From positions 262,036 to 326,035 of the forward strand of contig RDOB01000004.1 of the NCBI GenBank assembly GCA_011364965.1: a DNA stretch of 64,000 bases, given 5' to 3'. Position numbers and translations under genes: made by a program. This stretch comes from Candidatus Heimdallarchaeota archaeon. Its GTDB lineage: Archaea; Asgardarchaeota; Heimdallarchaeia; Hodarchaeales; Hodarchaeaceae. The notes under the pieces are model-generated. The model was not told the origin of the DNA and searched no databases. It was given only the letters and a program-made list of their open reading frames with translations. The number at the start of each line of letters is the position of its first letter. The stretch's first letter is position 1. This document shows positions 30,081 to 34,508 of the stretch, one piece after another.

Positions 30081-31907
30081 TTATTTCAACAAATCATATT
30101 TAGAATGATATGCTTTATTTAGAACAATCAAGATATATTCACGCTCTGGTATTTTATTTACTGAAGCGAAATTATTGATTAATTCGGAACATGGTTTTAG
30201 CCTCTTTCGACCCGAAAGCATTTCTTTTCCAGAATTCAAGCTTTGATAAATATATTCACATAAGTTCTGTTTGCTTTTTATTCTTTTATTGTATATTCCA
30301 ATACGAGTAGCGTTAAAAATTTCCCCAAAGGATTGGAAATAAATACTAATATTCCCCCAATAATGAAAAATTACTGTATGGTGCTTAGAGGGTACGTTTC
30401 TTAACGGAGGGTACCTAATTCCAAGTGGTAAATATTCAACTCTAAAGGAAGTAAGACCTGTATTAGTACAAGGATCAAAACATCCTATGCTTTTCAAAAA
30501 GTCACTGAGCAATTCCTCGTATCTATATTTTATGTATTTTGTTTTCTTGAAAGGTATTACTTTAAATTGAATTTTTTCCCTTGCTAATTTAGATTTTTCT
30601 TCGTATATTACAATATCTGGAAAATCAATAGTGTTTCGATTATTTGTTACGACTCTCCCCCATTTATCATCTGCGATAACTTTTAATGGCATGTTTAATA
30701 GATTTAAATGGTTCTTTTTTTTAGTTAAATCATTCATTTCGGATCTAATTCGTTGATCTTGGAAAATTACCGCAATAGCTCTCGTAATACCCTCTTTATT
30801 ACTTTCAAGTGGAAATAAAATATTATTTGTCGTAATATTACCGATTTTTTTGTTTATTGAAATTTCTCTTATATCTTCAAAAGAAAAAAGAGTTGGAAGA
30901 GGAATTAGTTCAGAATGCTGAATTTTCTGAAATTCTCTATAGAATTTGATGAAATTTGATCCTGTAAATTTTATGTTCCTGTAAGAGGTTAATAATTTTC
31001 TAATTAGATCAACTTTTGTTGATTGATCATTTAGAAAGATCTGAAAATGAGAATTCAACAGGCTAGAATCATTATAATCAGATTCTATGAATTTCAAATT
31101 TTTACTACAATAATATTCATATAATTTTCTAAGGCGTGGATTTTTTCCTTTATTCCATTGGGTTTTCCATTCATATTTTTTGGTGTTATAGAATCTCCAA
31201 AAAAGATACTCAAATAAGTCATCAATTCTTTTCTCTTCAAACTTTAACTTATAAACCATTAAGATTTGGATATTTACTGGATGAGTAATATTAAGAGATT
31301 TCTTTATCCCTTGAACTAAACTTAACTTGATTGCTTTATCTTGATGATGTAATGAAACCTTATTCATTAATGTATCAAAGATTATCCTTCTATTCCCTCC
31401 AGGTTTAAAACTTGAGGGTGAAAGGCCCTTTTTGTTGAAAGAATAAGTTTTACAGTTATAGATATGAAATTTAGCTACTTTATAAGATCTAGGATCGAGC
31501 ATGTCAAATGTAATAAACAAATTCTCTCCTCTCAGTTTTCCTCTATAATTTAGCCAACTTTCAATGGTTTCTGTTGGAAATTTCTTGCTATTTTCGAAAA
31601 AAAATATTAAATCTTTAAAATCGCCAAAATATTTAAGATTAATCAATCTAGTTTGAGTATTATACCCTATTAAAAATGGATTATTAAATTTTCTATTCAA
31701 TTTATCAAGATAATCGAACATTATGCTTGAAGGTCCACCAGTAACATCAATAATCTGATTCCATAGGTTTGTGAAGGAGTATAATCTTTTAAATTTCATT
31801 GAAGTTTCATTAGAGTCAGTCAATAATTTATCTACTAACCGTGCTAAATCCATCAAACTTTTTCTAGGAATGATACCCACCTTTAAGATTAAAAATAATT
31901 TAATCAA
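30081..31907 (-). CDS. Orphan Lys/Asn-rich protein with a possible PD-(D/E)xK nuclease domain
   Basis: 608-aa ORF; FPDIVIYEEKSKLAREKIQFKV resembles a PD...QxK core. Confidence 0.6.
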   Translation of the reverse strand: MIKLFLILKVGIIPRKSLMDLARLVDKLLTDSNETSMKFKRLYSFTNLWNQIIDVTGGPSSIMFDYLDKLNRKFNNPFLIGYNTQTRLINLKYFGDFKDLIFFFENSKKFPTETIESWLNYRGKLRGENLFITFDMLDPRSYKVAKFHIYNCKTYSFNKKGLSPSSFKPGGNRRIIFDTLMNKVSLHHQDKAIKLSLVQGIKKSLNITHPVNIQILMVYKLKFEEKRIDDLFEYLFWRFYNTKKYEWKTQWNKGKNPRLRKLYEYYCSKNLKFIESDYNDSSLLNSHFQIFLNDQSTKVDLIRKLLTSYRNIKFTGSNFIKFYREFQKIQHSELIPLPTLFSFEDIREISINKKIGNITTNNILFPLESNKEGITRAIAVIFQDQRIRSEMNDLTKKKNHLNLLNMPLKVIADDKWGRVVTNNRNTIDFPDIVIYEEKSKLAREKIQFKVIPFKKTKYIKYRYEELLSDFLKSIGCFDPCTNTGLTSFRVEYLPLGIRYPPLRNVPSKHHTVIFHYWGNISIYFQSFGEIFNATRIGIYNKRIKSKQNLCEYIYQSLNSGKEMLSGRKRLKPCSELINNFASVNKIPEREYILIVLNKAYHSKYDLLK

Positions 31908-32331: not shown

Positions 32332-32571
32332 TTTTTTGTTTAGAACGGTTTGATTTTTGGGAGTCGGGGGAATAGACCTAGAGTTACCAAGGGACAACAT
32401 AATTAAAGGTCTTATGGAATAGGCATAAATTTGCAGATTTTACGTTTAGGTTGCGTAAATGTATTTATTTTCCTAGCAAAAACCGTGTTAGACTAATACG
32501 GGAATCAAATGGGAAGTTCTTAACGGAATTAGAACGTCTATTTATATCTAAATAAAACTTAGGTGACTTGA

Positions 32572-33441
32572 GTGGATATTGAAAAAGTTGTTTCTGAAAT
32601 TCAAGCAAAATTTGGTGTTGTTGGGCGAGAAAATATCCTTCGAAAATTAATTCTTGGAAAAATGGCCAAAAAACATATTATTATCGAAGGACCAGTCGGA
32701 GTTGGAAAAACAACGCTTGCTCATGCTGTTGCTGCTTACTTTGATCAAGGTTTCATCAGGATTGATGGAGACGAACGATATACCGAGAGTAAATTAGTAG
32801 GTCATTTTGAACCTCCTCTTGTCGTGGAAAAAGGGTGGGTATGGGATGCGTTTGTTCCAGGACCTCTTACTCTTGCGATGAAGAATGGATCCATTCTTTT
32901 TATTAATGAAGCAAACCGATTGATAGAAGGAACTCAAAACGTGCTTCTACCATCAATGGATGAGGGAATATTAATTCTGCCGAAATTAGGAATAATAAGA
33001 GCAGGAGAAGGATTTTTAGTTGTTGCAACACAAAACCCTGAGTCATATATTGGCACAACTGTTCTTTCTGAAGCATTGAAAGATAGATTTGTCTGGATTA
33101 AATTGAATCACCAAAGATATGAAGAAGAATTAGACATTGTCATGCAGAAGGCAGATTTAGAACCAGAAGACCGAAATATCGCGGAAATAGCGGTTAAAAT
33201 CACACGAGCGACCCGAAAACATCCAGAAATCCGAAGAGGATCATCCATTAGAGGTGCCATTGATTTAGCTAAAATCTTAAGCTTAGTCAAAAGTTTAATA
33301 CTCGAAACGGTCTCAGAAATGGCAATTATGACTATTGCCACCAAGATTGAGCTAGAAGATGGCGTTGAAAGGCCTGTTGAAGAAATCATTCACGAGATCA
33401 CGGAAGCAATTTTGTCTGGAGACGAAGACCGTTTTTTATAG
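32572..33441 (+). CDS. MoxR-family AAA+ ATPase
   Basis: GPVGVGKT, Walker B variant LFINEANR, ATQNP, LSEALKDRF, SIRGAIDL. Confidence 0.92.
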   Translation: MDIEKVVSEIQAKFGVVGRENILRKLILGKMAKKHIIIEGPVGVGKTTLAHAVAAYFDQGFIRIDGDERYTESKLVGHFEPPLVVEKGWVWDAFVPGPLTLAMKNGSILFINEANRLIEGTQNVLLPSMDEGILILPKLGIIRAGEGFLVVATQNPESYIGTTVLSEALKDRFVWIKLNHQRYEEELDIVMQKADLEPEDRNIAEIAVKITRATRKHPEIRRGSSIRGAIDLAKILSLVKSLILETVSEMAIMTIATKIELEDGVERPVEEIIHEITEAILSGDEDRFL

Positions 33442-33466
33442 AGAGATCCCGAGGAAGCTCTCGGGA
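33432..33466 (+). other. Candidate -1 programmed ribosomal frameshift signal
   Basis: Slippery T_TTT_TTA (33432-33438) immediately before TAG; 8-nt spacer; stem TCCCGAG/CTCGGGA (33447-33466); -1 frame open into the vWA ORF. Confidence 0.75.
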
Positions 33467-33497
33467 ATATAAGAAGAATATTCGATTATTCGGTCGA

Positions 33498-34508
33498 ATG
33501 AATATGGAGGATCTAGCGGAAGCAGCGATTGCTGCTGGTGATACACTACCCAAACTCGACAAATTAGACTTAGCAAGTATCGAACGATTAACAGAATCAG
33601 CAATTGAGCATGAAAATCTCCCAGCATTGATGTCTCTAGCAAAAATCAATAAATATGCTGTATCGAACACATTAAACCCTGAAAGACTTGTGTCACTTGG
33701 ACGAATGGCTGGATCAGGAGGAGTGTACACCCCTCGGTTGTTTTTCGTTATGCGAGGAGTCTTGGATGTCAAAAGAAGAAAAATTTTGAAGAGGCTAACC
33801 AGAAGCTCAATACTTAAGCTCTCTTTAAGAGTTGCTTCTGAAGGGCTAAGAGGAGATTTACCTGTTAGAGGGGAATATGAGTATCAAACAGACTTTGATC
33901 TAGAAGAAACAATGGAACAGGTTTTAGAAAGGTATCCAGCTGGTATCCCTGTCCTTCAACGGAAGGATATAGTAGGAATTGAACGACGAGAACGACAAAA
34001 AAATGGTGTTCTGATTTTAGATGCAAGTGGTTCAATGATGGGAGAAAGGAACATTAATGCTGCACTTTCTGCCGCTGTTATGGCTTATTCGATGCGTCAG
34101 GATAAATTCGGAGTTATTGCGTTTAATACCAAAGCGTTTTTGATTAAAGGTATCAAAGATCATATACCTACAAACGAAATCATGGATAGAATCCTGGATC
34201 TTGAAGCAGTTGGATATACAAATATAGAAGACGCACTAAAAATGGGAGCTATTCAGTTAAAAGGAATCAAATCGCGTTTTAAATGGGCTATTTTGTTAAC
34301 TGATGGCGCCTATAATAAAGGGGAAGATCCCCGATATCTATGCAAGCAGTATGAGAAGCTACATGTCATTAATCTGCCAGGGGGTAAAAAATGGGGTGAA
34401 CGTGTATGTAAAGATCTTGCACGATTAGGGGGAGGTCGTTATGTGACTGTACGCAATTACAATGAAGTTCCACGAGCGCTTATGAAGATAATGCGGAGCC
34501 CTTGGTAA
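33498..34508 (+). CDS. von Willebrand factor A domain protein (MoxR partner)
   Basis: MIDAS DASGS...T...TDG; DFDLEETM motif; frame open upstream to the slippery site. Confidence 0.9.
   Translation: MNMEDLAEAAIAAGDTLPKLDKLDLASIERLTESAIEHENLPALMSLAKINKYAVSNTLNPERLVSLGRMAGSGGVYTPRLFFVMRGVLDVKRRKILKRLTRSSILKLSLRVASEGLRGDLPVRGEYEYQTDFDLEETMEQVLERYPAGIPVLQRKDIVGIERRERQKNGVLILDASGSMMGERNINAALSAAVMAYSMRQDKFGVIAFNTKAFLIKGIKDHIPTNEIMDRILDLEAVGYTNIEDALKMGAIQLKGIKSRFKWAILLTDGAYNKGEDPRYLCKQYEKLHVINLPGGKKWGERVCKDLARLGGGRYVTVRNYNEVPRALMKIMRSPW

Follow-up and report, generated by a model that had tools for sequence, protein, structure and literature searches.

Two open reading frames (ORFs) on the forward strand of the window (the whole stretch of DNA that was analysed, 64,000 nt), one for a MoxR-class AAA+ ATPase and one for a vWA-domain protein, raise the question whether they represent two genes or a single gene whose halves are joined by a frameshift. 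We report that the two ORFs are best read as one recoded gene and that this likely applies both here and in approximately 70 related genomes, as inferred from sequence alone. Specifically, a -1 programmed frameshift probably gives rise to a 289-aa ATPase as well as a ~645-aa ATPase-vWA fusion; the support comes from sequence comparison only and there is no RNA or protein evidence. The comparisons show the anatomy of the signal, its conservation in the phylum, selection on the -1-frame linker as coding sequence, loss of the start codon in many orthologues and the existence of in-frame fusions.

The locus, its predicted products and the probable slip signal

The features of the locus are as follows (window positions).

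32562..32566, + strand: SD-like GGTGA (direct reading), 5 nt ahead of the GTG with which the AAA+ ORF starts
32572..33441, + strand: MoxR-class AAA+ ATPase ORF, 289 aa, the 0-frame product; Pfam AAA_5 and AAA_3
32689-32712, + strand: Walker A motif GPVGVGKT of the AAA+ ORF
33432..33438, + strand: slippery heptamer T_TTT_TTA in the X_XXY_YYZ register, where XXY and YYZ are 0-frame codons
33439..33441, + strand: 0-frame stop TAG, which abuts the heptamer and ends the short product
33439-33446, + strand: 8-nt spacer between heptamer and hairpin (direct reading)
33447..33466, + strand: hairpin, the presumed frameshift stimulator, with 7 Watson-Crick pairs and one G-U
33438..33497, + strand: -1-frame linker IERSRGSSREYKKNIRLFGR, upstream of any start codon and predicted to be disordered
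33498..34508, + strand: annotated vWA ORF, 336 aa, predicted to form the C-terminal part of the ~645-aa trans-frame product; Pfam VWA_2 and VWA
~33504-33836, + strand: helical domain within the vWA ORF
~33972-34493, + strand: vWA fold within the vWA ORF
34020-34034, + strand: MIDAS DxSxS motif within the vWA ORF

By direct reading the AAA+ ORF (32572-33441, + strand) terminates with CGT TTT TTA TAG. The hairpin arms are TCCCGAG (33447-33453) and CTCGGGA (33460-33466), and RNAfold adds the G-U pair such that the stem becomes 8 bp with the loop AAGC. Relative to the AAA+ ORF, the vWA ORF (33498-34508) occupies the -1 frame. This frame stays open from position 33381 on; from the slip site it encodes IERSRGSSREYKKNIRLFGR up to the ATG at 33498, and the predicted -1 product is …DRFL-IERSRGSSREYKKNIRLFGR-MNMEDL… with 289 + 356 = 645 residues. 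The linker codons (33438..33497) would be translated only after a shift, which is inferred from the sequence. Direct reading revealed no SD-like motif before the ATG at 33498, in contrast to the GGTGA ahead of the AAA+ GTG at 32572. In this locus the ATGs at 33498 and 33504 could nevertheless permit independent initiation, and it remains possible that some free vWA protein is made from the ATG at 33498. An earlier sequence-only reading had described the heptamer, the 8-nt spacer, the stem, the open -1 frame and the missing SD at 33498, and all of these held on direct reading and ORF check.

The heptamer alone is not rare, since TTTTTTA occurs 65 times in the 64,000-nt window compared to ~70 expected. 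The local 96-nt fold at the junction gives z = -1.2, and the 50 nt 3' of the U-run give z = -2.95, with -12.8 kcal/mol for the hairpin. The 8-nt spacer falls within the 5-9 nt required of a -1 frameshift cassette. Together, the heptamer frequency and the local folding make the single sequence only suggestive; its significance therefore comes from conservation. No Rfam family was found at the junction, and a sigma-70 promoter/terminator scan, which is ill-suited to archaea, gave nothing above shuffles.

The AAA+ ORF scores above the Pfam cut-offs for AAA_5 (66.9 bits, 2.5e-18) and AAA_3 (51 bits, 1.7e-13), and its closest single-domain relatives in the PDB are MoxR (2r44), NorQ and CbbQ. At the protein level, the closest cluster (87% identity) bears the name Candidatus Hodarchaeales, in agreement with the Asgard assignment. 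GxxGxGKT and the catalytic Glu (E113) are invariant among the aligned orthologues. As a separate observation, the ATPase has I-N-E at its Walker B position (32902-32910), where D-E is usual, and this Asn (N112, alignment A2) is invariant in all 40 of the 40 aligned orthologues.

Other identities for the ATPase were considered. That of a chelatase was rejected because of the model scores (PF01078, 16 bits vs a cut-off of 20.3; TIGR02031, 28.6 bits vs 499.55; TIGR02442, 28.8 vs 779) and the missing CobN; no CobN/ChlH (PF02514) match over cut-off was present in the window's genome (G000), which is 87% complete, and the absence is thus unproven. GvpN and other curated models score far under their own cut-offs. 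By total score the top PDB match is eukaryotic midasin (4e-32, and 5.5e-68 with a profile). A special relationship to midasin was rejected: the total is a sum over its six AAA domains, the best of which reaches 55.8 bits compared to 83 bits for MoxR 2r44 and 69 bits for NorQ. Moreover, the midasin MIDAS domain had no match with the vWA profile, and in the fold search Rea1-MIDAS came 11th, behind NorD and BatB.

For the second half, the AlphaFold model of linker plus vWA (mean pLDDT 83.5) consists of a disordered linker, a helical domain and a vWA fold, where residues 1-18 have pLDDT < 50 and represent the predicted disordered linker. The best fold matches of the vWA model are the NorD vWA domains in NorQ-NorD complexes. 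The MIDAS is intact, i.e. D195, S197, S199 and D289 are invariant in the orthologue alignment and T261 is nearly so.

The surroundings give no functional clue: the genes on either side run in the opposite direction and comprise one for a GDPD enzyme and ORFs without Pfam families, and nor or cbb context is absent around the AAA+/vWA locus. One neighbour, a 608-aa ORF (30081-31907, - strand), has no Pfam family at E <= 0.001. With respect to RNA, the metatranscriptome run X20 has a 229-nt contig in which 33972-34068 is linked to 33596-33727 (a back-joint of 473 nt) and which is likely chimeric or mis-assembled. This contig, from the sole RNA run, lies inside the vWA part and misses the junction, and it is silent either way on frameshifting.

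Conservation within the genus and across the phylum

The genus set comprises 18 loci, all from independent assemblies, and the vWA frame is -1 in 18 out of 18. CGTTTTTTA is invariant in every one of them (18/18), whereas the wobble positions immediately 5' of it are variable in 28 of 30 cases. When the 30 nt between the hairpin and the ATG are read in the -1 frame, the variable columns at codon positions 1, 2 and 3 number 4, 1 and 10, respectively; the stretch before the annotated ATG evolves as -1-frame coding sequence. The residue at the window's ATG position is Met, Leu or Ile in the genus relatives, and ATG, GTG and TTG are all absent near the vWA start in 5 of the 18 loci. The hairpin pairing is kept in 92% of the cells across the genus, where the five pairs of the core are constant and one pair is compensatory (AU13/GC2/GU2). 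Because the core never varies, covariation within the genus is nearly uninformative and the comparison between families carries the weight.

An orthologue was found in 247 of the 400 genomes searched, and 76 orthologous loci representing 24 families of the phylum were analysed. The vWA part is in the -1 frame at 69 of these loci, in the +1 frame at three and fused in frame at four, and the -1 frame is kept in 20 out of 22 non-fused families. In the first sample the vWA frame was -1 at all 29 loci, with T_TTT_TTA or T_TTT_TTC in register at the stop in 28 of the 29. Elsewhere the AAA+ ORF ends with other slip motifs (A_AAT_TTT followed by TGA; GAT TTT CAA TAA; A_AAC_CCT), of which A_AAT_TTT and A_AAC_CCT are heptamers in the correct register, and several families carry U4 only (GAT TTT CAA TAA), short of a full tandem-slip heptamer. 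The 0-frame stop is no more than two codons from the U-run or slip site in nearly all -1 loci. Both halves, AAA+ and vWA, are under purifying selection across the phylum. It should be kept in mind that the genomes are related and that the locus counts and z values are not independent trials, i.e. the counts overstate the independent support.

There is no ATG, GTG or TTG within 40 codons at 14 of the 69 -1 loci, and an independent vWA start is therefore impossible at those loci. A conserved Met at the vWA start is kept in classes f3, f5, f6 and f7, and at some loci (L013, L020 and those of the AAT TTT TGA type) an ATG or TTG overlaps the stop, which is compatible with reinitiation.

A hairpin is located at the same place in most families, starting 4-11 nt after the U-run (mean z = -1.9 vs shuffles, n=67 loci), with unrelated stem sequences: UCCCGAG/CUCGGGA, GGGAAUUC/GAAUUCCC, GGAGG/CCUCC and, in L020, a 9-pair GC-rich stem. 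Many families (L034-L041, L046-L054) also have a conserved GAUGA right after the hairpin, 20-35 nt past the AAA+ stop; it encodes D-D/E in the -1 frame and might be no more than an acidic linker motif, or else part of the signal.

The three +1 loci belong to families f32 and f4 (L058:1423-1470, L064:1411-1460 and L065:1435-1465) and have TTT TTT CGR in common just before the AAA+ stop. Here, a +1 slip onto TTC before a rare Arg codon is plausible; loss of a U in the RNA is the other possibility.

Natural in-frame fusions were identified: P0002 (647 aa, in two assemblies) and P0003-P0005. These are 65-69% identical to linker plus vWA, and at the junction they have a different, acidic linker without a T-run; because of this difference and the missing T-run they are not homopolymer errors. 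In addition, family f24 is fused and its open frames span 724 and 732 aa, and many more distant homologues are AAA_5+VWA fusions of ~560-710 aa. The AAA+-vWA fusion is therefore a real, selected protein architecture.

The same genome has, outside the window, a paralogous pair of an AAA_5 protein (283 aa) and a vWA protein (341 aa), located at L078:958-2831 (- strand), which corresponds to G000 contig C9:346357-348230. In this pair A_AAA_AAT is positioned directly before TGA, the vWA part has the -1 frame, with a TTGA overlap, and ~9 nt downstream there is a GGGAC/GTCCC hairpin.

Taken against these data, the expectation that orthologues keep the slippery site and an open -1 frame held, and so did the suggestion that in-frame fusions might occur naturally. 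The anticipated hairpin covariation is supported, with the hairpin kept and with different stems between families, although support within the genus is thin (the one compensatory pair).

Alternative explanations

Transcriptional slippage is one alternative, where the RNA polymerase adds one U in the T-run and some mRNAs thereby encode the fusion in frame without a ribosomal shift. In its favour, a T6 run is present, the +1 loci with TTT TTT CGR could be fused by loss of one U such that a single mechanism would cover both directions, and the poly-A chlD sites (see below) are equally open to such a reading. Against it, many families have only U4-U5 or A_AAC_CCT; efficient polymerase slippage requires runs of ~8-9 or more, and these sites are consequently too short. 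Furthermore, slippage by the polymerase needs neither an X_XXY_YYZ register beside the stop nor a hairpin at a spacing typical of frameshift signals, yet the U-run is always found in this register and such a hairpin follows it. We consider this explanation very unlikely.

Equally improbable in our judgement is that the locus consists of two ordinary genes, where the vWA protein is made from the ATG at 33498 or 33504, or by termination-reinitiation, and where the heptamer merely represents codons of a conserved D-R-F-L C-terminus. This is favoured by the presence of an ATG in the window's locus, by ATGA or TTGA overlaps at six loci (L013, L020, L033, L036, L059 and L073), by the heptamer being common in the AT-rich DNA of the window and by the fact that MoxR and vWA partners usually are separate genes. 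However, the start codon is missing at 14 of the 69 -1 loci, the 60 nt before the ATG evolve as -1-frame coding sequence, and the wobble bases of CGT TTT TTA are frozen whereas their neighbours vary. Moreover, the -1 frame is kept in 20 of the 22 non-fused families, and sister lineages are fused in frame.

Finally, a one-base homopolymer assembly error or a recently broken fused gene, to which error-prone homopolymers and relatives with in-frame fusions would point, is all but excluded by the identical T6 and frame offset in 18 genus genomes, each assembled independently, and in the contigs of three studies, together with the purifying selection on both halves across the phylum. With respect to the latter contigs, the stretch is without indel in assemblies of three DNA runs from the three studies; these possibly include the source sample, and being contigs only they do not inform on T-run heterogeneity at the read level. 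An indel error in T6 had been named as one thing that could undo the sequence-only reading, and on this point the reading held.

Relation to known systems and proposed mechanism

We favour the -1 programmed frameshift, and the closest precedent for it is the fs-chlD cluster of Mg/Co chelatases, whose 23 genes in six genera have poly-A sites and shift with an efficiency of up to 63% in reporter assays (Antonov et al. 2013, PMC3711429; Kuznetsov et al. 2022, PMC9227772). That chlD genes are frameshifted had been claimed as a precedent, and this claim held against the same two papers. As in fs-chlD, a single locus would encode an AAA+ module and, following the frameshift, an AAA+-linker-vWA protein; the annotation shows two neighbouring genes, some relatives are fused in frame, there are -1 as well as +1 versions, and a structure is located 3' of an AT-rich slip site. 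In contrast to fs-chlD, the MoxR/vWA locus matches AAA_5/AAA_3 and not the ChlD/ChlI models, no CobN/ChlH was found, and the slip site, in an Asgard taxon, consists of a U-run right next to the stop where chlD has poly-A. In addition, frameshifting has been measured for chlD, whereas for the MoxR/vWA locus it is inferred from sequence comparison.

With respect to the proteins, NorQ/NorD and CbbQ/CbbO consist of a MoxR AAA+ hexamer and one vWA adaptor (PMC13036017, PMC9976466), and in NorQD a single vWA domain is positioned on the NorQ hexamer and has a finger inserted into its pore (PMC13036017); the NorQ-NorD PDB entries have six NorQ chains each, with NorD as chain G. The AAA_5-type ATPase resembles NorQ and CbbQ, which together with MoxR 2r44 are nearest among solved single-domain proteins, and the vWA model with its intact MIDAS best matches the vWA domain of NorQ-bound NorD. 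The differences are that the Walker B is N-E and not D-E, that there is no nor/cbb context, and that the Asgard partners would be joined by recoding, and in some lineages are joined in frame, whereas NorQ/NorD and CbbQ/CbbO are encoded by separate genes and are separate polypeptides.

Two further cases concern recoding as such. In Saccharolobus solfataricus fucA1, a -1 frameshift at A_AAA_AAT joins two ORFs (reviewed in "Translational recoding in archaea", listed in PMC3711429). Likewise, the present locus is an archaeal cellular gene with two ORFs and predicted -1 slippage at a heptamer, and its paralogue shares A_AAA_AAT; unlike fucA1, for which function is known for the full-length enzyme only, the short product here is a complete ATPase and the site is conserved phylum-wide. 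In Escherichia coli dnaX (tau/gamma), a -1 frameshift in an AAA+ gene generates two proteins that are present in the same complex in a set ratio. The parallel is an AAA+ gene, a -1 frameshift and two proteins from one gene, with the difference that the shift truncates DnaX whereas here it would extend the protein with an adaptor domain. To our knowledge, archaeal cellular genes other than fucA1 and archaeal chlD are not known to have established programmed frameshifts, and a literature search (MoxR, Asgard and Hodarchaeales combined with frameshifting) returned no description of a MoxR/vWA frameshift.

In the mechanism that we propose, ribosomes would reach U_UUU_UUA with TAG as the next codon, where the hairpin, located 8 nt further on, presumably makes them pause. 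Most ribosomes would terminate and release the 289-aa MoxR-class ATPase. A fraction would slip back by one base, with tRNA-Phe and tRNA-Leu re-pairing on UUU UUU, and continue via the short linker, predicted to be disordered, through the helical domain and the vWA/MIDAS domain to yield the ~645-aa fusion. Both the ribosomal nature of the slip and its efficiency are inferred. Mixing of short and long subunits would then result in approximately one tethered vWA adaptor per AAA+ hexamer. That a minority fusion places about one adaptor on each ring is a possibility raised by analogy with NorQD, since efficiency and stoichiometry are inferred; in the same way, the claims in the sequence-only reading of a fusion made in the minority and of a ratio that sets adaptor stoichiometry remain inference.

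A bolder reading takes several steps at once: the recoding dates from the ancestor of the Asgard phylum and acts as a stoichiometry device, where each hexamer receives approximately one covalently attached vWA as set by the slip efficiency, lineages switch between -1, +1 and in-frame arrangements, and the paralogous pair independently keeps the design with an A-rich heptamer. Taken jointly, we consider that the balance tips against this reading.

If the frameshift is confirmed, most of the Asgard phylum would share a programmed frameshift in a MoxR/vWA chaperone whose client is unidentified. In the annotation of hundreds of Asgard genomes the locus is split into two genes, often with an arbitrary vWA start, and one recoded gene would be the better model. 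The chlD rule, in which one gene provides both AAA+ and AAA+-vWA subunits, would be extended to a second AAA+ family, and the arrangement may therefore be a general answer to how a ring and its minority adaptor are assembled.
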